Shown: positions 15,995 through 29,388 of the stretch, piece after piece
How the letters are laid out: the number at the start of each line of letters is the position of its first letter
Numbering within the stretch: the first letter of the stretch is position 1
NCBI GenBank assembly: GCA_946186205.1
Contig: CAMHMH010000010.1
Location: 2,777-66,776, forward strand
DNA from: an uncultured Fretibacterium sp.
GTDB lineage: Bacteria; Synergistota; Synergistia; Synergistales; Aminobacteriaceae
Length of the DNA stretch: 64,000 nt
Direction: 5' to 3'
Program-made: the position numbers and the translations under genes
Notes under the pieces: model-generated
Told to the model about the DNA's origin: nothing
Seen by the model: the letters and a program-made list of their open reading frames with translations, nothing else
Databases searched by the model: none

Positions 15995-17062
15995 TTAAAG
16001 TATGTTTGTGTCGATTCCGTATTTCACGAGCAGAGACGCAAAATCAAATCCGTTAATCAGGATTATGCCTTTTTCGGCAGCATATTTTTTTGTTTCGCCG
16101 CTGAACTCCTGAGTCATATTTATGAGAATGTTTATCTGCTTTTCGTATCCTTCTGTCCTGACAAGCTGAAAAGCACCCTCAATATCATTATCATCAATGC
16201 CCCTTTTGTTTTTCGCCTGAACATGTATCACCGGCACAAGCTCCCGTGAAAGTTCCGATGAAAGTTCAGAAATACTTTTAAGAAGCGTATTGTCCGTAAA
16301 CGACTCAAAAACTAAATCAACATCAGCCCCCTGACCGTCATATATATTGCTGTTAATGCATCTGTAACCGCATCTTGTGAAAAGCTCCTCAATGATTCTT
16401 TCAAGCTGTTTGGCTTCCCATCCGTTTATGACCCCGATAATGTTCATCAGGTAATCATTTCTTGCGTCAATAACTTGCTTTGAAGCCGAGAGAACTTCAA
16501 GCGGAGTTTTTACGGCGTGAGTGTCCGAGTCTGTTTTTTTCTCTGCGATGAGGCTTTCAGCTGCTTCGATGAAGTCTTCATTATGGACATTGTTTACTGC
16601 TTTGCGGTATGCCTTGAATTTTGCGCTTACTGTCTTTGAAGAGTCATTGAGGCCGTATGAGAAGCTCCCGATAAGTTCAACGCCTATCATATGACCGAAA
16701 TCATTGCTTTCATCATCCCGGTATCCCTCTGTAGAAATCGGCGCGAACGAATAGCCTTCTGTGCATCTCACAATTGTAAATGTGTTCGCCCATTCGTCAG
16801 ACGTTTCCCAGTCCCCCAGAGGAGAGTCAATATTCAGTTTCGGAATGATGAGAGTATCGCCCGGCTTCATGTCCAGCATAGGACGTATTATCCTGTAGCG
16901 GCGTTCCCCGTCATCGTATGTCCGCGCAAAAATATCTTCCCCGTTCCTGAGATCCGTGCCGTCACAGCCCCATCCCTGACGGAGTACTTTGTGTTCCTGA
17001 AGCTCTTTCTTGATCAGGTCGTAGCAGGCACCGTAATCAATTCTGAAAACGTAAAAGCCCAT
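15995..17062 (-). CDS. Mrr-like PD-(D/E)xK restriction endonuclease domain protein with an uncharacterised N-terminal domain
   Basis: C-terminal GQGADVDLVFES...VIHVQAKNKRG...GIILINGFDFASLLVKYGI matches the Mrr catalytic-core pattern (GxGDxGxD...QxK). ATG at 17062 lies 8 nt after AAAGGAG. Confidence 0.7.
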   Translation of the reverse strand: MGFYVFRIDYGACYDLIKKELQEHKVLRQGWGCDGTDLRNGEDIFARTYDDGERRYRIIRPMLDMKPGDTLIIPKLNIDSPLGDWETSDEWANTFTIVRCTEGYSFAPISTEGYRDDESNDFGHMIGVELIGSFSYGLNDSSKTVSAKFKAYRKAVNNVHNEDFIEAAESLIAEKKTDSDTHAVKTPLEVLSASKQVIDARNDYLMNIIGVINGWEAKQLERIIEELFTRCGYRCINSNIYDGQGADVDLVFESFTDNTLLKSISELSSELSRELVPVIHVQAKNKRGIDDNDIEGAFQLVRTEGYEKQINILINMTQEFSGETKKYAAEKGIILINGFDFASLLVKYGIDTNIL

Positions 17063-17108
17063 ATGATTTTCTCCTTTCATGTATATATTTTTTTTGAAAA
17101 CTTTAATA

Positions 17109-18080
17109 TCATAAACCGTTCAATATTTCCTCAGCGAATCCCTTCACGATCTCTTTCAGCTCTTCAGGCTCAATCACGATCACATGAGGCGCGCCAGACA
17201 TTACCCACCTCGCGAACTCATAGAGATTCGGAACTTCCGCTGACAATATCACGCCTCCTTCTTCGCACTCTTCAACCTTCTGCGACGGATGCCACTTCAC
17301 CTCGCGGAACGTCTGCGCTAATGGCTCTGAGATTCTGACCTTCACGGGAATTTTTTCATGTCCCGGGATAACATGCCACGCCGACAATGTATAGTCCTCC
17401 GTGAATCCTCCGTCTTCAGGCTTCACATACCCTTCATCACTTATTGACGCGCTTATTATCCGGCTGATTCTGTGAATGCTGAGAGTGTCATGCTTGTGAT
17501 TGTACGAGGCCATGTACCACGCATTGCCCCTGAAGTAAAAATCATACGGTGATAACGTCCAGTGCTTTGGCATTTTCCCCGGCGATGAGTAAAGAATGTT
17601 CACGGCTTTCTGCGAGCGTTTTGCCTCAACGAGAGTCCCGAAAATTTTTGCGTCAACTTCCGCGACTGGTATAGCATTGAGAGTCGATCGCGTTATCTCT
17701 GAACCTAGCGACAGAATTTCACCGGGCATATAGTTTCCGAGCTTCTCAAAGAGTGAGCGTGCAGAGTCTTTCAGGTGTGGCAGGAAATGTACGGCCATGT
17801 TCAAGCCCGCGCTCAAAGCTGTAATTTCGCTCTCGGTTATTCGCAGGTTCAAGTGAAATATTCCGGCACTCTCCATTACGTATAACTTGCTGTGAATGTC
17901 GTAGCGTATATCAGCTCCGTATATACCCCTGAGATAATACAGATCATTCTGAAGCGTCCTGTTGCTTCTGTATTCGCCAGCTGAGAATATTTCGTCATGA
18001 GTCGCTCTCACTTTCGACTGAAGGAACGCCATCACCCTCGACAATCTGTCATGACGCACTGAGGTCATATCTTTAGGCAT
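17109..18080 (-). CDS. HTH-WYL-WCX transcriptional regulator (BrxR/CapW/PafBC-like architecture)
   Basis: N-terminal wHTH-like region (RLSRVMAFLQSKVRATHDEIF). WYL-type core (SPYDFYFRGNAWYMASYNHKHDTLSIHRISRI). C-terminal extension. Start is ambiguous: 18080 is preferred because GAAAGG lies 10 nt upstream; 18113 and 18068 are alternatives. Confidence 0.75.
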   Translation of the reverse strand: MPKDMTSVRHDRLSRVMAFLQSKVRATHDEIFSAGEYRSNRTLQNDLYYLRGIYGADIRYDIHSKLYVMESAGIFHLNLRITESEITALSAGLNMAVHFLPHLKDSARSLFEKLGNYMPGEILSLGSEITRSTLNAIPVAEVDAKIFGTLVEAKRSQKAVNILYSSPGKMPKHWTLSPYDFYFRGNAWYMASYNHKHDTLSIHRISRIISASISDEGYVKPEDGGFTEDYTLSAWHVIPGHEKIPVKVRISEPLAQTFREVKWHPSQKVEECEEGGVILSAEVPNLYEFARWVMSGAPHVIVIEPEELKEIVKGFAEEILNGL

Positions 18081-20601
18081 TGAGTCCATACCTTTCACTG
18101 ACCGGCAGAACATACCCGCATGAAGGGCAGTAAGAAGTTCTGCGCTCTAAAATCCTTCCGCATTTCGGGCAGGGCTTTTCATTTCCCGTTACAGGTTCTG
18201 AGTCATTCACCGCGTTTTTGTCCGTCAGCTTTACTCCCAATGAGAGAAGAGCTTTCACCGCTTTAACATTCCCCGCGTCAACAGCAAGACTCATCAAGCC
18301 ATCGTGAATATCAGCTCCAAATTCAGCGAGGACTCCAATCACATTTGAGTCCCATTCGTGATAGTCTGACGTAACAGCGAGCATTGCGGCATTCTGATTG
18401 TGAATGTTGCGGGTGTTAATGTCTGCTCCGTTCTTGACGAGGAATTTTACGGCCTCTGCTTTGTTGAAGAATACAGCGTACATTAACGGCGAATAACCGA
18501 GCCACGTCTTATAGTTGACATTCCCGCCGTGATTGATTGAGTCCTCAATGTCATTCACAGTTCCCCAGCAAGCCGACAATAACATTATCATATCCCAGAA
18601 TCTTACCCATGTTCCGCCGTTGTCTGTTCCCGACTCTATCATCTCCCAAAGATGACTCAGCATATGACAGCTCAGCGGCCCTCCGTAATATTCCTCCCAT
18701 CCGTCATAATGCTGAATGCTTCTGACGTTGGTTATGTCTGCGGGATCATGCTTCCATAAAAATTCGGCTATGAATTTTGCCTGCTGAAAGTTATCAAGCA
18801 TGATACGTTCTCCCCTGTGCGAAAGAAATTCCCCGAACTGCGTATCACGGAGGCTGTGAATATCCGCGCCGTTATTGAGCAGCACATTCATCATTTCTCC
18901 GGGCTGATAGTAGCTATCACATCTTAAGGCGATTTCAGCAAGCGCGCTGTTTGTGTCATAATTCCCGGAAGCAATAACTTTCTTCAGGGCTTCGGGCGAA
19001 TAACAGAGGCATAACGGATTCATTTCCTCAATATCTCTTCGATGACTCCAGTTTTCATTGATGACATACGTTAATTCGGCACCTTCAGGGAGGACTAACG
19101 GCCATGTGATTCCGGCTTCTTTGAGTATTCTTAGAATCTCCGCTCCTTTGTCGAGCCTGCGTTTTATGTCAGTGTGTTGTGGTGAAGGTTTGCTCATGGC
19201 TTCGGGGAAATCGTTAATCCTGAATGCGAGTCCTGCTGACACTCTGAGAAATTCTGACAGGGATTCGCCGTAATCAGGCACAATTTTTTCGGGGGAGATA
19301 CGCTCAATGATTCCTCTTAGGGTCTCGGTGTCATATTCCGCAATCGAATCACAAAAAAGCCGGAGCGCGTGAGATTTGTTTGCTGGGTCAGTCAGAAGAC
19401 TCTTCCAGTTGCGTCGGAAATCTTGATATTCATCGTCAAAGACTTCACGGAGTGTACGAGATTCGGAAGGGTTAATTTTTGCCCCGGCGTTAATCATCAT
19501 GGGCAGGACCTCGCGCAGAAATGTCCGCACTTCTTCCGACTCTGAGAAGAAAGAATCGGCAGAGTTAAACATAATGTCAAGAACGGGTTTTATTCCGCAA
19601 TCGTCAGTAAAGTCCGTGTTCACATTCGCCCCCGCGTCAAGGAATGTGCGAACTATATCCGGGCGGGCGTATATCCATCTTGCGGCATTCGTGAAAGGAG
19701 TCATTCCGTTGTCGGCTGAAGCGTTAATGTCAGCTCCGTTTGCGAGAAGCAACTTCAGGATTTCGTGCGCGTTGTCGGTGTCTTTGCTGAAATCAATCAT
19801 CATAAGCGGTGTATATCCGTCAGTCTCAAGCTCTTTGGGGTTATGTCCCTTGCTGATGAATTGTCTGACAAGCTCAGGAGTTCCGAATCTCAAGCAGGCC
19901 GCAAAGAATGATTTTTCCGTGCCGAGTCTTTTTGTTCGCCCGTCGAGTCCGTTCTCAATCATGGCCGTGATGTTCTCTGCGCTTTCGTTCGCAAAGAGTT
20001 CGCACCAGCTCGTATAACCAGCGTCATACATGAGCGCGAAAATTTTTGCCGTGAATTTTCCGTCCTCGTTTGAATCCCATCTAGTTACAGACTTTACGCC
20101 ATGACCGCAAATTTCTTCTAGTATATTCTCTTCAATCCCCCAAAATGCTTCATGATCGTATTCTGCAAGAGGCACAGACATTATTACGTGTGCCATTTTT
20201 GAGCCGTGAATATCTCCGCACATTTCCGCCGCTTTTCGTATTGCGCTATCTACGTCATCGCCGCTTCCTGAACCGTAATGCACCGTTCCCGCGTTCCTGA
20301 AAATGCCTGCGAGTATTCTTGCGCTGTTGTCTGCAATCTCTGAAATATCTTCCGCGATTCCCTGTGAAATGTCTTCTTCATTCCGTGTGAATATTACAGC
20401 GTCAGCAATATCGGCGAATCTCTTCACGTCATAATTTCCCGCCGGGATTCCTGCTGTTATGATTCCTGACTCCCGCGCTGATTCTGCGAGCGTTATTGCG
20501 TCATTGAGTTTCGACTCTGTTATGCCCGTTATGAGAATGAAATCTGAGTCCTCAAAGTCATTCAGCGTTTCATTTTTCAGAATGTCAACTACTTTTATCA
20601 T
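18073..20601 (-). CDS. Degenerate FtsZ/tubulin-like N-domain fused to multiple ankyrin repeats and a C-terminal zinc ribbon
   Basis: The N-terminal ~170 aa are paralogous to the upstream 221-aa ORF. Ankyrin repeats include LLANGADINASADNGMTPF, LLNNGADIHS and LVKNGADINTRNIHNQNAAMLA. C-terminal CPKCGRILERRTSYCPSCG. Start is at 20601 or 20628. Confidence 0.7.
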   Translation of the reverse strand: MIKVVDILKNETLNDFEDSDFILITGITESKLNDAITLAESARESGIITAGIPAGNYDVKRFADIADAVIFTRNEEDISQGIAEDISEIADNSARILAGIFRNAGTVHYGSGSGDDVDSAIRKAAEMCGDIHGSKMAHVIMSVPLAEYDHEAFWGIEENILEEICGHGVKSVTRWDSNEDGKFTAKIFALMYDAGYTSWCELFANESAENITAMIENGLDGRTKRLGTEKSFFAACLRFGTPELVRQFISKGHNPKELETDGYTPLMMIDFSKDTDNAHEILKLLLANGADINASADNGMTPFTNAARWIYARPDIVRTFLDAGANVNTDFTDDCGIKPVLDIMFNSADSFFSESEEVRTFLREVLPMMINAGAKINPSESRTLREVFDDEYQDFRRNWKSLLTDPANKSHALRLFCDSIAEYDTETLRGIIERISPEKIVPDYGESLSEFLRVSAGLAFRINDFPEAMSKPSPQHTDIKRRLDKGAEILRILKEAGITWPLVLPEGAELTYVINENWSHRRDIEEMNPLCLCYSPEALKKVIASGNYDTNSALAEIALRCDSYYQPGEMMNVLLNNGADIHSLRDTQFGEFLSHRGERIMLDNFQQAKFIAEFLWKHDPADITNVRSIQHYDGWEEYYGGPLSCHMLSHLWEMIESGTDNGGTWVRFWDMIMLLSACWGTVNDIEDSINHGGNVNYKTWLGYSPLMYAVFFNKAEAVKFLVKNGADINTRNIHNQNAAMLAVTSDYHEWDSNVIGVLAEFGADIHDGLMSLAVDAGNVKAVKALLSLGVKLTDKNAVNDSEPVTGNEKPCPKCGRILERRTSYCPSCGYVLPVSERYGLNA

Positions 20602-20608
20602 GATGAGT

Positions 20609-21274
20609 TTACAATTTCCCTTTGTCATTCATGGCCGCGAGAACTGACACTCTCACTTTCTCGCCTAAATCATCATCCATCACATGACCCCAAATCACCT
20701 GCGCTTCAGGGTCTGCTTTCATCTCTATCACGTTTGCCGCGTCTGACATATCTCTTAACATTACTTCCGTTCCTGTTGTTATGTTCACGAGGAATCTTTT
20801 TGCGCCTGAGACATTCCCGCACATTTCGCAGGCGATCTTTGCGGCTGTTCTTGAATCTTCTGCTGTTCCTGCTCCGAAATAAACCGTGCCCGCGTCCCTG
20901 AGTATCTCGTTCACGTCTTCAATGTCGATATTGACGAACCCGGTTTTTGTTACGAGGTCTGAGACTGCCTCAATGATTCTGCGTGAGGAGTCCTCAGTTT
21001 TTCCCGGCGAAAGTATTACAGCGTCAGCAATATCTGAGAGCCTCTTCATGTTCTGGTTCAGCGGATTGATGCTGCCCGATATGCTTCCTGCTGTTACGGA
21101 TTCAGATGCCTTTGCTGACTCTGCGACTCTGATTGCGTCCTTGATGTTTGACTCTGTGATGTTCGTTATGAGTGTGAGACTTGCGTTCTCGGTGAAGCCT
21201 GATCGCCTGAAAGTGTCATGTGTGAATTGAGTCTCTTGATTCCCGGCCATGTCGATAATTTTGAAGTCGTCCAT
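20609..21274 (-). CDS. Degenerate FtsZ-like protein lacking the GGGTG(S/T)G nucleotide-binding signature
   Basis: FVNIDIEDVNEILRDAGTVYFGAGTAEDSRTAAKIACEMC...AKRFLVNITTGTEVMLRDMSDAANVIE...VIWGHVMDDDLGEKVRVSVLAAM parallels the T7-loop to C-terminal domain of FtsZ. The position of the G-box reads LITNITESNIKDAIRVAE. AGGAGGA Shine-Dalgarno upstream. Confidence 0.65.
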   Translation of the reverse strand: MDDFKIIDMAGNQETQFTHDTFRRSGFTENASLTLITNITESNIKDAIRVAESAKASESVTAGSISGSINPLNQNMKRLSDIADAVILSPGKTEDSSRRIIEAVSDLVTKTGFVNIDIEDVNEILRDAGTVYFGAGTAEDSRTAAKIACEMCGNVSGAKRFLVNITTGTEVMLRDMSDAANVIEMKADPEAQVIWGHVMDDDLGEKVRVSVLAAMNDKGKL

Positions 21275-21340
21275 AATGATTCGTCCTCCTGAAATTTTTG
21301 CAGCAATAATACAACGAGGCAGCGAAAAATTAAGGTGCTG

Positions 21341-21411: not shown

Positions 21412-23253
21412 ATGATGATAGGGAATACAGCGAACACCATCAGCATGGCATATAAGAACCTCACAGCCACGAACAAAGCAATGGAGAACACATCACGCGC
21501 GCTTTCAACGGGGCTTCGTGCGGCAACGGCGGCTGATGATGCGGCAGGTTTCGCGATGGGTATAGCTATGTCGGCGCAGGTGGCGGGAGTCGACAGGGCG
21601 ATACGAAACTCACAGGACGGTATATCAATGCTCCAGACAGCAGAAGGAGGACTCAGCCGTATAAACTCGGTGCTTCAGAGAATGAGAGAGCTTGCAGTTC
21701 AGGCGGCGAATGATTCTCTCACTGCCCAGGACAGAAGCTACATACAGGCGGAAATTGACGAACTCGCAAAAGGAGTCGACAGCGCGGCGGCAAGCACTAC
21801 ATTCAACGGAAAAAGGCTGCTTGACGGAAGCTCGACGGCTCAATGGACATCAGACAACGCGGCAACAAGCCTCAAAATCACGGGGGCAATCACGATCACA
21901 GACGAGTACGGCCAGAAGAAAGCCACCGAAGGAAACTACAGAATCGAAATACGCGCAAAGCCGGGGCAGGGCCAGGTTCAGAAAACAAATATCATTGAGC
22001 TTGAGTCACTTGAAGAGACAATCACGACTGAGACAGCACCGAAACGGGACAAGGACGGAAATATTATCACTGACAGCAGCGGGAATCCTGTAGAAGTCAG
22101 CGTTTCAGTTTCAGAGAAGAGGCTTCACCCTGCGACCCTCGAAAAAATAAAATCCTTCACGAACGCAAGCGGAGTATCATACTTCACAGAGCCTCAGACA
22201 ATACGAATAACTCAGGGCGACGGAAAAACCGCAAGCATTGTAGTTTACGGAGGAGATACAGTTTACGATGTCAGGCGGAAGATTAATGATGCGATTGCAG
22301 ATGACTTAGGGCAGGGGAAATATGTCGACAACCGTGAAAACTTCTGCACAATTTCTGACGGGACTCCCCAGACTTCAGAAGCCGTTTCAACAAAGAACCC
22401 TTCACTTACACCCTACAAAGACATGCAGGAGCTTACTTACGAGCGCGACGCTGACGGAAAATTAATACTTGATTCGGACGGTAGGCCAAAGGAAATTTAT
22501 ACCCCCGTGCAGTCTGAAAAGGGAACAATCATAATACGCAGCGCAGTGGCAGGGAAGGCCGGTGAGCTCACATTCAGCTCCGACAATGAATCGCTTATTG
22601 CCGCTCTGGGACTCAATACGATTCAGCAGGCAGAAGAAAATACATTCACCGCATCAGTGTATGACTCTCATACTGGCAAAGTGCTCGCGAAGAACGCCCA
22701 GACAGACGGAAATGTAATCACAGGAATCATTCACCCGAACGCTAATGTAGAGTTCGACAACATGGCAAACGTAAAAGTCTCGTGGTCTGAGACATCAAAA
22801 CGCTACGTAATGGAAGGCGACACATCAGCATATGAGACAACGCTTCACATCAAGGACAACAGCACGGCATTCCAGATCGGGCAGGGGCGCGGAGAAGATA
22901 TATACATCAACATCGGGGACATGAGGCCGGAAGCGCTCGGCATACATTCAGTTGACGTTACTACGAGGGAGAATGCCTCAAGGTCAATCAGCATACTTGA
23001 CGCGGCAATACATAAAGTCAGCGTTCAGCGTTCAAAACTGGGCTCATACCAAAACGAACTGGAGTACAACACGAACAGCCTAACGGAGACGAGCTTCCAG
23101 TTGCAAAACTCGGAGAGCAGGCTCAAAGATGCTGACATGGCGTTGAAGTACATGGATTTTGTGAAGCTGCAAATTCTGAGTCAGACCGGGAACTCAATGC
23201 TTTCACAGGCGAATCAGAATGCCCAGTCTATAATGAGGGTAATGAATTTCTAG
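21412..23253 (+). CDS. fliC: Flagellin (long form with a large variable central domain)
   Basis: Conserved N-terminal (LSTGLRAATAADDAAGFAMG...SMLQTAEGGL...LQRMRELAVQAAND) and C-terminal (RSKLGSYQNELEYN...ILSQTGNSMLSQANQNAQSIMRVMNF) flagellin domains. AGGAGG Shine-Dalgarno upstream. Confidence 0.95.
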   Translation: MMIGNTANTISMAYKNLTATNKAMENTSRALSTGLRAATAADDAAGFAMGIAMSAQVAGVDRAIRNSQDGISMLQTAEGGLSRINSVLQRMRELAVQAANDSLTAQDRSYIQAEIDELAKGVDSAAASTTFNGKRLLDGSSTAQWTSDNAATSLKITGAITITDEYGQKKATEGNYRIEIRAKPGQGQVQKTNIIELESLEETITTETAPKRDKDGNIITDSSGNPVEVSVSVSEKRLHPATLEKIKSFTNASGVSYFTEPQTIRITQGDGKTASIVVYGGDTVYDVRRKINDAIADDLGQGKYVDNRENFCTISDGTPQTSEAVSTKNPSLTPYKDMQELTYERDADGKLILDSDGRPKEIYTPVQSEKGTIIIRSAVAGKAGELTFSSDNESLIAALGLNTIQQAEENTFTASVYDSHTGKVLAKNAQTDGNVITGIIHPNANVEFDNMANVKVSWSETSKRYVMEGDTSAYETTLHIKDNSTAFQIGQGRGEDIYINIGDMRPEALGIHSVDVTTRENASRSISILDAAIHKVSVQRSKLGSYQNELEYNTNSLTETSFQLQNSESRLKDADMALKYMDFVKLQILSQTGNSMLSQANQNAQSIMRVMNF

Positions 23254-29263: not shown

Positions 29264-29388
29264 CGCGTTCACCTCAATTCTACAGGGCGGCTCCCCGTCG
29301 ACCGATGAGCCCTGTACCTCATCCGGGACTCCCTCGTGAAAATCATTATACCAGATAAAATTAGCACCTTATGTGATATGATACGTGC

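Follow-up and report, generated by a model that had tools for sequence, protein, structure and literature searches.

Two tandem genes in the 64,000-nucleotide stretch of DNA analysed here (the window) are predicted, from sequence profiles and structural models, to encode FtsZ-fold proteins that have lost the nucleotide pocket, and only one of the two retains the T7 loop and the bottom polymerisation face. The reading we favour, at a rough probability of 0.45, is that the shorter protein serves as an inducible, one-faced FtsZ mimic that would block the GTP face of FtsZ rather than polymerise. This tentative proposal draws on sequence comparison, models and analogy.

Both genes are carried by a rumen Synergistaceae genome. 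The first encodes a 221-aa protein, and the second encodes a protein in which an FtsZ-like domain without G-box and T7 is followed by ankyrin repeats, a repeat-rich middle and a C-terminal zinc ribbon (Table 1), an ending that is also present in the orthologs P0039 and P0069. The likely start of the ankyrin-fused gene, the ATG at 20601, lies 7 nt past the TAA of the short gene, and the ATG of the WYL gene overlaps the stop codon of the ankyrin gene (ATGCCTAA). The FtsZ-like pair is translationally coupled and lies in one tight operon with the WYL/WCX regulator and the nuclease-like gene. The promoter element GCACCTTA is identical in seven related loci and takes the degenerate form GCACTTTT in an eighth (L006), and all of these loci have an 18-19 nt spacer and a -10 element.

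Table 1. Positions in the window of the operon, its upstream signals and the predicted protein features.
Feature	Position	Strand	Remarks
221-aa truncated FtsZ paralog ("short FtsZL")	20609..21274	-	ORF confirmed; Pfam, TIGR00065, phmmer, AF2, hhalign, Foldseek
851-aa ankyrin-fused paralog	18073..20628	-	ORF confirmed; probably 842 aa, ATG at 20601
I39-T40-E41-S42-N43 codons, at T4 / GGGTG(S/T)G position	21146..21160	-	hhalign register
T7 synergy loop G112-F-V-N-I-D-I-E-D120, 221-aa protein	20915..20941	-	
FtsZ C-terminal (GTPase-activating) domain S7-S10, 221-aa protein	20633..20899	-	includes L173, IWGH194-197
FtsZ-like domain, ankyrin protein	20014..20601	-	ITES aa 36-39 = nt 20512-20523
First ankyrin-repeat block, aa 243-338	19615..19902	-	Ank_2, 5e-24
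C-terminal ankyrin-repeat block, aa ~691-812	18193..18558	-	PADLOC PDC-M72A likeness via ankyrin repeats only
C-terminal zinc ribbon, aa 817-841, CPKCG...CPSCG	18106..18180	-	Zn_ribbon_3 4e-05, under gathering score
WYL/WCX transcription regulator, 323 aa from MPKDMTS	17109..18080	-	
Mrr_cat (PD-(D/E)XK) nuclease-like protein	15995..17080	-	last gene of the four-gene minus-strand cluster; variable "cargo" slot
Conserved promoter element	21306..21338	-	GCACCTTA 21331-21338, 19-nt spacer, -10-like TATTAT 21306-21311
RBS AGGAGG upstream of short gene	21285-21290	-	

The 221-aa protein matches the Pfam FtsZ_C domain with 53.2 bits (cutoff 27) over aa 154-214, and model positions 196-323 of TIGR00065 match its aa 98-215 with a score of 66.6, where the cutoff is 295. 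A phmmer search of the PDB likewise matches FtsZ (E 3.6e-18, aa 77-216), and hhalign against 12 genuine FtsZ sequences gives E 1.7e-34. Bridging hhalign comparisons connect long degenerate paralogs with FtsZ over the entire core, including T1 and T4 (E 1e-59), and the short family with the long paralogs from residue 23 (E 2.9e-50). AF2 models of the two proteins have pLDDT 78 and 81 and pTM 0.78 and 0.79, and the best 50 PDB matches found by Foldseek for each model are all FtsZ (TMq about 0.6-0.69, 200-240 columns). The paralogs are 40% identical to each other over aa 29-159 (E 2e-24), and their alignment runs on to a common ending, AAMNDK or ALMYDAG. The profile-profile search and structure prediction proposed in the preliminary description therefore assign the FtsZ fold to both proteins, and its tandem FtsZ-fold paralogs are borne out. 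Its motif equivalences are recovered as well, with NIDIEDV paired with NVDFADV, NITTG with the S8 strand and RVSVLAAM with RVTVIAA in the phmmer alignment.

The paralogs appear to have arisen from Synergistaceae FtsZ itself. Besides the fold, the C-terminal half of the 221-aa protein (H7-T7-CTD) is about 50% identical to the FtsZ of the lineage (for example L024:9365-10690), the strings GFVN, NITTGTE.ML and ADP.AQVIWGHV are lineage-specific and common to both, and the T7 NxDxxD motif and bottom-face Leu are retained. In contrast to that FtsZ, the 221-aa protein lacks the G-box, T1-T3, the C-terminal linker and the FtsA-binding tail peptide, its N-domain is reduced from about 165 residues to about 95, and its gene lies outside the dcw cluster and evolves at about 5 times the rate of its neighbours. 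Its N-subdomain is reduced to S1, a remnant of H3 and S4-H4-S5-H5-S6; a short H7 follows, and both T7 and the FtsZ C-terminal domain are kept whole. There is also a wider family, missed by the preliminary description, in which G-box-less FtsZ derivatives form a Synergistaceae-restricted radiation of CTD-only (~140 aa), short, long-degenerate and Ank-fused (800-980 aa) forms.

The hhalign alignment of the 221-aa protein begins at A47, equivalent to FtsZ A141 just past the G-box. When this register is extended without gaps, I39-T40-E41-S42-N43-I44-K45 falls on FtsZ G133-G-G-T-G-T-G139, and the bridging profiles agree, so the G-box position is occupied by ITES as first described. Deletions have removed H1-S2-H2-S3 and most of H3, along with H6 and the beginning of H7. 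An N-terminal T1 region that is missing or shortened had also been reported, and T1-T3 is indeed deleted, but part of the N-terminus survives as an S1-like strand (aa 5-10) and an H3 remnant (aa 19-25). As judged from alignments and models, the nucleotide pocket is dismantled through deletion of the T1-T3 region, replacement of T4 by ITES, and deletion of H6 and the start of H7. A motif scan for Walker A, GGGxG, GxGxxG and NKxD found none in either protein and neither matches an NTPase Pfam domain, so that these searches reveal no overlooked nucleotide-binding motif of the kind that would speak against the original pseudo-GTPase reading. We infer that both proteins are pseudo-GTPases.

Conservation of ITES had been taken to imply selection on the motif. 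The paralogs do share it, but invariance is limited to I39, T40 and, for the most part, N43 (N43 fully so across the short family). The residue at position 41 can be E, K or R among short-family members and A, T or L in the wider set of relatives, and farther family members have DIFG or GDSP in place of the motif. Because ITES is confined to a young subclade and sits, in the models, at the S4 end and H4 N-cap, its conservation argues for structural constraint and recent common ancestry, not a new ligand site.

The statement that all FtsZ/tubulin families keep the G-box was too strong. Loss of this element is not unique, because plant ARC3, a MORN-fused FtsZ-like domain that is "probably not a functional GTPase" (PMC3494859), is a functional precedent, and archaeal FtsZ paralogs without the motif were noted earlier (PMC2875224). 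By analogy, ARC3 would be the closest functional counterpart of the ankyrin-fused paralog, since its FtsZ-like domain is fused to protein-interaction repeats, inhibits FtsZ assembly and makes ARC3 a negative regulator through FtsZ binding (PMC3494859). However, ARC3 is eukaryotic and nuclear-encoded, has MORN rather than ankyrin repeats and is presumably of independent origin; it has no described T7-positive/T7-negative partner split and no WYL or defence context. FtsZl1 and FtsZl2 likewise belong to the FtsZ superfamily as divergent prokaryotic paralogs whose function is unknown; they carry extra C-terminal domains and lie in gene neighbourhoods unrelated to division (PMC2875224). FtsZl1 is a mirror image, as it keeps GGGTG(S/T)G and lacks T6-H7 and the FtsZ C-terminal domain (PMC2875224), whereas the proteins described here retain T7 and the CTD without GTP loops.

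The dN/dS values of the FtsZ-like genes are 0.33-0.58, compared with 0.07-0.10 for the ALAD, epimerase and WYL genes at similar dS, which puts the pace of evolution of the FtsZ-like genes at about 5 times that of flanking genes. N-terminal regions of Ank-fused proteins are only 26-57% identical across loci. Fast evolution, the loss of the catalytic pocket and an L009 ortholog split by a frameshift could mark these genes as functionless remnants of FtsZ duplications with no selected role. We consider this very improbable and disfavour it: intact ORFs are present in at least 28 sequence clusters (51-100% identity, about 45 invariant columns), dN/dS is far under 1, AF2 gives confident folds for both proteins, and gene order, promoter and RBS are conserved.

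The bottom longitudinal face of the 221-aa protein is complete, with the T7 loop, H8, the S8-H10 leucine and the S9 IWGH. Its GFVNIDIED corresponds to GFVNLDFAD in FtsZ and to N207/D209/D212 of the E. coli protein, and L173 to the E. coli bottom-face residue L272. Among 25 sequences (51-100% identity), G112, F113, V114, N115, D120, L173 and I194-H197 are invariant, and the first T7 aspartate, D117, varies between D, E and G. This pattern suggests that the bottom face of the short protein is under selection. In the ankyrin-fused paralog, a 6-residue deletion has removed the T7 loop, H7 and H8 form a single continuous helix in the AF2 model, and the S8-H10 Leu and IWGH motifs are degenerate. The contrast between the two paralogs was missed by the first reading of this DNA. 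Almost all relatives that lack the G-box have the T7 motif, among them the CTD-only, short and long forms and the majority of the Ank-fused ones, and its joint loss with the S8-H10/IWGH motifs occurs in one Ank-fused subclade only. All four members of this subclade with known upstream sequence (window, L001, L003 and L009) have a T7-positive short gene directly upstream, which in L009 is the frameshift-split copy. The T7-positive Ank-fused genes of L070 and L071 have no upstream short partner.

A complementary split of this kind, with T7 present in one paralog and absent from the other, could reflect a self-contained heterocomplex in which the T7 face of the short protein docks on the remodelled, nucleotide-free top face (the ITES face) of the ankyrin-fused paralog, leaving FtsZ untouched. 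The resulting nucleotide-independent dimer or short stack would be a scaffold or sensor for the adjacent nucleases. Translational coupling fits this arrangement, as do the top-face LITGIT that is invariant in both paralogs and the similarly fast rates of both FtsZ-like domains, which would be expected of co-evolving partners. It is nevertheless doubtful, given that the polar T7 residues N115 and D120 (and also G112, F113 and V114) are invariant in the short family, yet no nucleotide would be present at such an interface, and that single-gene forms are known, namely the T7-bearing Ank-fused L070 and L071, the CTD-only 140-aa proteins and the solo short gene of L006.

In the one-faced mimic that we prefer, the T7 face of the short protein would dock on genuine FtsZ at the top face, where GTP is bound, whether on a monomer or at the minus end of a filament, and may complete the GTPase site on the bound FtsZ. 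No further subunit could add because the short protein offers no nucleotide face, and therefore FtsZ would be sequestered or capped and Z-ring dynamics perturbed. The ankyrin/zinc-ribbon paralog may be a partner, adaptor or sensor for the short protein, and in relatives with a T7-bearing Ank-fused protein a single protein would perform both jobs. SulA, MciZ, MipZ and MinC similarly block one longitudinal interface and sequester monomers or cap filament ends (PMC9897490), but their folds are unrelated to FtsZ. The FtsZ T7/C-terminal interface is the filament plus end (PMC9897490), and it is on this face that SulA, MciZ and MipZ act, whereas a T7-bearing mimic would act on the opposite, GTP-bearing face. 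A literature search found no natural T7-bearing FtsZ mimic aimed at the GTP-bearing face. FtsZ interface mutants described by Du et al. in PNAS in 2018 are said to be sub-stoichiometric cappers.

Several observations weigh against the mimic. The N-subdomain is heavily remodelled, so the FtsZ open/closed switch that strengthens longitudinal contacts may not operate, D117 varies, and the short gene of L006 is accompanied by neither an Ank gene nor a WYL gene. That WYL and nuclease genes lie nearby could partly reflect common ancestry in one bacterial family rather than function. In addition, if the target is slowly evolving host FtsZ, the FtsZ-like domains would not be expected to evolve fast; conflict with a fast-evolving partner fits this rate better.

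The operon also contains a WYL regulator and defence-candidate nucleases that the preliminary description had missed. In each of the six distinct loci with downstream sequence, a WYL gene follows the Ank-fused gene within one or two genes, and the encoded WYL proteins are 68-93% identical across related loci. Pfam detects the WYL and WCX domains and not the N-terminal HTH, which is presumed, and the best PDB sequence match, CapW, is weak (E 0.0026). Variable nuclease-type defence candidates lie beyond the WYL gene; PADLOC matches these cargo genes to the candidates PDC-S26, PDC-S02 and PDC-S11, and no PADLOC model covers the FtsZ-like part. Perhaps the FtsZ-like domains are bait for phage-encoded FtsZ inhibitors or FtsZ-binding proteins, and the ankyrin/zinc-ribbon region relays binding to nuclease effectors or the WYL circuit. 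Such a decoy would be consistent with this defence-island content, with dN/dS raised above that of the conserved flanks, with the expansion and tandem duplication of variants in the lineage and with a WYL regulator of defence-linked type (PMC9122601). We consider it unlikely, as no phage FtsZ inhibitor is known for the lineage, the FtsZ-like protein has no fused signalling or effector domain, PADLOC similarity is limited to ankyrin repeats, and phage collections yielded no relatives of the FtsZ-like proteins to compare.

Members of the WYL class detect ssDNA and are found in association with defence islands (PMC11662680, PMC9122601), and BrxR-family genes lie close to a variety of defence genes (PMC9122601). 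The WYL activator DriD switches on the cell-division inhibitor gene didA upon DNA damage (PMC9186387, PMC4211646). As in DriD-didA, CapW-CBASS and BrxR-BREX, a WYL + WCX regulator is here encoded beside the genes it presumably controls, but it lies downstream of the FtsZ-like genes and is not first in the operon. If the short protein is a one-faced FtsZ mimic, the WYL regulator, whose known relatives respond to ssDNA, DNA damage or phage infection, would gate its expression, and the module and the nucleases next to it would serve in a response to damage or phage, the module by imposing division arrest.

The short protein exceeds the gathering threshold of the Pfam FtsZ_C model (PF12327; 53.2 bits against 27), and FtsZ chains in the PDB match its residues 77-216 with an E-value of 3.6e-18 (phmmer). 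This alignment contains all the pairings that had been proposed by eye, namely NIDIEDV with NVDFADV, the NITTG strand, and RVSVLAAM with RVTVIAA. There is no FtsZ_C match in the window's ankyrin-fused paralog; ankyrin-fused relatives that carry T7, the synergy loop on the bottom face of FtsZ, do match. The two proteins are 40% identical over residues 29-159 (E 2e-24), and in a multiple alignment the similarity reaches as far as a common ending (AAMNDK in the short protein, ALMYDAG in the fused one), which bears out their description as tandem paralogs. Confident AlphaFold2 models of the two (pLDDT 78 and 81; pTM 0.78 and 0.79) have the Rossmann-like N-terminal domain, core helix H7 and C-terminal (GAD) domain of the FtsZ/tubulin superfamily, with the N-terminal domain reduced to 4-5 strands. 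For each model, the best 50 Foldseek matches in the PDB are all FtsZ (TMq 0.6-0.69). Profile alignment, AlphaFold2 and Foldseek, the kinds of check suggested in the preliminary description, agree on an FtsZ fold for both proteins, and a non-tubulin fold is ruled out by the Pfam and Foldseek matches.

The model of the short protein begins with S1 (residues 5-10), an extra strand, a remnant of H3 (19-25), S4 (33-39) and H4 (44-56), and continues through S5, H5, S6, a shortened H7 (96-109), T7 and H8 to a complete C-terminal domain. Absent are H1-S2-H2-S3, most of H3, H6 and the start of H7. Because the C-terminal half is 50% identical to FtsZ of the same bacterial lineage, and because the lineage-specific strings GFVN, NITTGTE.ML and ADP.AQVIWGHV are common to the short protein and Synergistaceae FtsZ, sequence comparison identifies the paralogs as derivatives of Synergistaceae FtsZ and not of a distant family. 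By score, tail and location, the short protein is not itself a bona fide cell-division FtsZ. The TIGR00065 FtsZ model covers residues 98-215 with 66.6 bits, compared with an equivalog cutoff of 295.2. The protein terminates at AAMNDKGKL without a linker or tail, and thus without an FtsA/ZipA-binding peptide. Its gene sits between the flagellin and WYL genes and not in the dcw cluster; the genuine FtsZ gene adjoins ftsA elsewhere in the lineage.

Coordinates of features in the window and in related loci (L numbers)
Feature	Locus	Position	Strand	Product
Short FtsZ paralog	window	20609-21274	-	221 aa
Ankyrin-fused FtsZ-like paralog	window	18073-20628	-	851 aa
Conserved promoter element	window	21331-21338		
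Second copy of the element	window	29364-29372	+	
Flagellin	window	21412-23253	+	613 aa
Mrr_cat protein	window	15995-17080	-	
ORF antisense to FtsZ-like gene	window	20886-21230	+	114 aa
ORF antisense to FtsZ-like gene	window	19499-20017	+	172 aa
Short gene	L006	4331-4960		
Split short-gene ortholog	L009	6166-6881		
Tandem FtsZ paralogs	L074	954-2687		254 and 261 aa
C-terminal-domain-only gene	L047	1147-1563		
C-terminal-domain-only gene	L050	9297-9722		
C-terminal-domain-only gene	L051	5022-5438		
C-terminal-domain-only gene	L056	1397-1813		
C-terminal-domain-only gene	L066	1902-2309		

A profile of 25 family members aligns with a profile of 12 genuine FtsZ proteins at a probability of 99.9 and an E-value of 1.7e-34 (hhalign). 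This alignment begins at A47, opposite FtsZ A141, the first residue past GGGTGTG, and ungapped extension places I39-T40-E41-S42-N43-I44-K45 on FtsZ G133-G139. The register was also checked through intermediates, which are relatives of 254-274 amino acids with a degenerate T1 loop (e.g. GVGRKGCQ). These align with FtsZ over the whole core (E 1e-59), with IGDSP---LAP facing AGMGGGTGTGAAP, and the short family aligns with them from residue 23 (E 2.9e-50), with ASLTLITNITE facing ADIIFVIGDSP. Both the direct and the indirect register thus confirm the claim that ITES replaces the G-box: the positions aligned with GGGTG(S/T)G (T4) read ITESNIK in the short protein and ITESKLN in the fused one. The region of the T1 loop (GxGxxG) and the T2/T3 phosphate-sensing loops is deleted, as had been proposed for T1, which long-form relatives retain in degenerate form. 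Walker A, GGGxG, GxGxxG and NKxD motifs were sought in both proteins and none is present, which rules out a hidden nucleotide-binding motif elsewhere. Because of this absence and the loss of the pocket, the prediction that both proteins are pseudo-GTPases is well supported.

The short protein keeps the T7 loop, reading GFVNIDIED at the NxDxxD pattern. Within this loop, G112-F-V-N115 and D120 are invariant in the 25 family members (51-100% identity), as are L173, at the position of E. coli L272 on the bottom face, and I194-W-G-H197. We take N115 and D120 to be the equivalents of E. coli FtsZ N207 and D212. In the window's ankyrin-fused paralog, a 6-residue deletion has removed T7, H7 and H8 are modelled as a single continuous helix, and the L173 and IWGH motifs are also gone. 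This T7-less state is confined to one subclade of fused proteins. Wherever the sequence upstream of a T7-less fused gene is known (the window and the related loci L001, L003 and L009), a T7-bearing short gene lies directly upstream (4 of 4), whereas the T7-bearing fused genes at L070 and L071 have no short partner upstream. The short-gene ortholog at L009 is split into two overlapping frames, either as a frameshift pseudogene or through a MAG assembly error, and the 962-aa ankyrin gene downstream is intact.

The two proteins share the FtsZ/tubulin fold, lack the G-box and T1 loop that define the GTPase, and fall outside bona fide FtsZ. The earlier statement that all FtsZ/tubulin families keep the G-box was too strong, because plant ARC3 has a non-GTPase FtsZ-like domain (PMC3494859). 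ARC3, in which this domain is joined to MORN repeats and which inhibits the assembly of FtsZ (PMC3494859), would be the closest functional analogue, and the likeness of a dead FtsZ-like domain with repeats is one of architecture. FtsZl1 is a mirror image that retains the G-box and is without T6-H7 and the C-terminal domain (PMC2875224). The traits of FtsZl1, which include a vWA/GTPase neighbourhood (PMC2875224), are not those of the present proteins, where kept and lost elements are reversed. We found no description in the literature of T7-retaining FtsZ paralogs without a G-box, of ankyrin fusions or of WYL linkage, and no family name in public sources. The feature itself is real.

An exhaustive HMMER search covering 1.84 billion representative proteins gave 21 matches at E ≤ 1e-30. 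About 30 representatives match most of the profile, and the rest are ordinary FtsZ proteins that match in the C-terminal half only. Four forms make up the full-length matches: short proteins of 209-225 aa, long degenerate ones of 254-274 aa (T1 and T4 both degenerate), C-terminal-domain-only proteins of 136-142 aa and ankyrin-fused proteins of 794-981 aa. A G-box is present in 0 of the full-length family matches, and nearly all retain T7. When one genome was scanned for each species, rumen Synergistaceae and Fretibacterium MAGs were the sole source of full-length relatives, and these genomes also carry a normal FtsZ adjoining ftsA. Since short proteins end in AAMNDK, the junction motif (AAMNDNGY...) at which the ankyrin region starts in fused forms, the short gene probably arose from the fused gene by duplication and truncation. 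A phage origin is rejected: tblastn against 50,697 phage records matched only FtsZ genes, at about 52-62% coverage and probably reflecting host contamination, and an IMG/VR scan for relatives found none. There were also no matches in a JGI metagenome scan with the ankyrin-fused profile.

Additional tandem arrangements are found at L072 and L074. The tandem paralogs at L074 are without a G-box and have T7, and downstream of them a PDDEXK_4/PDC-S26-like gene begins. This is another independent arrangement. The C-terminal-domain-only proteins, encoded in Synergistaceae MAGs, contain nothing more than the last part of H7, the T7 loop and the C-terminal domain of FtsZ behind a short leader. A gene for a 560-aa CstA-like membrane protein lies one or two genes downstream in three loci, including L050 and L051, where it is immediately downstream. 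At L056, the neighbour of the C-terminal-domain-only gene is oriented divergently and encodes a homolog of the window's 361-aa Mrr-like protein with 38% identity.

The likely ATG of the ankyrin gene (20601) lies 7 nt past the TAA of the short gene, its stop codon overlaps the ATG of a WYL/WCX regulator gene as ATGCCTAA, and an Mrr_cat nuclease-like gene follows the regulator gene after 28 nt. The regulator matches Pfam WYL (4e-10) and WCX (7e-16) and two PADLOC WYL models (3e-27 and 3e-21, residues 21-331). Its WYL and WCX domains place it in the wHTH-WYL-WCX class (BrxR/CapW/DriD/PafBC type), and we infer an N-terminal HTH that Pfam does not detect. A WYL/WCX gene is found within the next one or two genes downstream of the fused gene in all six distinct loci with downstream sequence, even where the fused protein is just 26-40% identical to that of the window; the WYL proteins are 68-93% identical to one another. 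The genes around the regulator differ by locus (Mrr_cat, PDDEXK_4, NucS_C-like and unknowns), and several match the PADLOC phage-defence candidates PDC-S26, PDC-S02 and PDC-S11. In the FtsZ-like proteins, PADLOC 2.0 matches the ankyrin repeats alone (PDC-M72A, 9e-19) and assigns no defence-system model.

The N-terminal ~210 residues of the window's Mrr_cat protein (FYVFRIDY...LRQGWG) have no Pfam, NCBIfam or PADLOC match and are conserved in L056; they may form a sensing or DNA-modification-reading domain. At L006, the short gene adjoins a flagellin gene, has no ankyrin or WYL gene downstream, and is followed by a transporter gene on the opposite strand.

Upstream of the first gene, 7 of 8 loci carry GCACCTTA, separated by 18-19 nt from a -10-like hexamer; in the remaining locus, L006, the element is degenerate (GCACTTTT). 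The conserved element occupies the position of the -35 box, as is typical where the site of an activator or repressor overlaps a promoter, and we infer that it is the WYL operator. A sigma-54 promoter is rejected, since the TGCAC-TTGC spacing is 7 nt and not 5, GG is absent and a good -10 lies downstream. The window holds only one other copy of GCACCTTA/GCACCTTAW, about 140 nt before the point where a secreted FAD-dependent oxidoreductase-like protein probably starts. The distance from this copy to a -10 differs, and at least 2 copies per window occur in 11% of shuffles, so this copy is probably a chance occurrence and a regulon within the window is rejected. Generic searches of the operon for promoters and terminators gave counts near the shuffle expectation.

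Comparison of five genes between the window and L001 indicates about equal divergence times, with the two FtsZ-like genes changing in amino-acid sequence roughly 5-8 times faster than the others.

Evolutionary rates of five genes, window compared with L001
Gene	Identity	dN/dS	dS
ALAD	93.5%	0.07	0.53
Epimerase	91.3%	0.10	0.49
WYL	92.6%	0.09	0.55
Short FtsZ-like	58.7%	0.41	0.65
Ankyrin-fused FtsZ-like domain	60.6%	0.58	0.45

The dN/dS values show that the FtsZ-like genes are constrained and therefore not pseudogenes, which conservation across the family also rules out. Fast evolution is common among proteins in genetic conflicts. The flagellin gene, transcribed divergently from the operon, encodes a protein with 80% identity to its L001 ortholog (dN/dS 0.12, dS about 1.0), compared with 91-94% for flanking genes. 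The L006 flagellin has 944 amino acids with a large Gly/Thr-rich insert, and the central domain of the flagellin appears hypervariable. The antisense ORFs inside the FtsZ-like genes look like mirror-frame artefacts by composition, with no evidence for genes.

A model of function can be built on the observed fold, pocket loss, bottom-face retention, operon structure, common promoter element and evolutionary rates. Perhaps the short protein uses its T7 face to dock on genuine FtsZ, at the GTP face of either a monomer or the minus end of a filament; the T7/C-terminal interface forms the plus end (PMC9897490). Because the bound short protein could not be extended, FtsZ would be sequestered or capped. 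The ankyrin/zinc-ribbon paralog would serve as partner of the short protein, and through the WYL regulator DNA damage or phage would induce the module. WYL regulators are known to bind ssDNA (PMC11662680) and to co-localise with defence islands (PMC9122601), and one of them, in Caulobacter, switches on a division inhibitor (PMC9186387, PMC4211646). We hold this whole model tentatively, at a probability of about 0.45. Compared with a host-FtsZ target, fast evolution would be somewhat better explained if the short and ankyrin-fused proteins formed a self-contained complex that leaves FtsZ untouched, or if they were an FtsZ decoy baiting phage factors, but the invariant T7 residues fit an FtsZ-GTP target better than either; we regard the complex as unlikely and the decoy as more so. 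A fuller version of the decoy, in which the FtsZ-like domains bait FtsZ-attacking phage factors and the ankyrin/zinc-ribbon part couples recognition to the WYL circuit and nucleases, strikes us as a long shot. If true, a cytoskeletal protein would here have been turned into an immune sensor of the 'integrated decoy' kind.

The two ends of an FtsZ filament differ from each other, and to our knowledge the well-studied natural protein inhibitors of FtsZ all act on the T7/plus-end face or laterally. If the docking model is true, a protein consisting of little beyond the FtsZ T7 face would provide a natural reagent for the GTP-bearing face, the first of its kind, with which end-specific capping models of treadmilling could be tested directly. 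The family shows stepwise reduction of a cytoskeletal GTPase to a binding module, from long degenerate to short to C-terminal-domain-only forms, with or without ankyrin fusion, and one duplication within it has left only one of the two copies with the contact face. We know of almost no experimental cell biology in the rumen Synergistaceae. The constant linkage to WYL and nuclease-candidate genes, together with the fast evolution, suggests that in these bacteria division control or mimicry forms part of a stress or anti-phage response.
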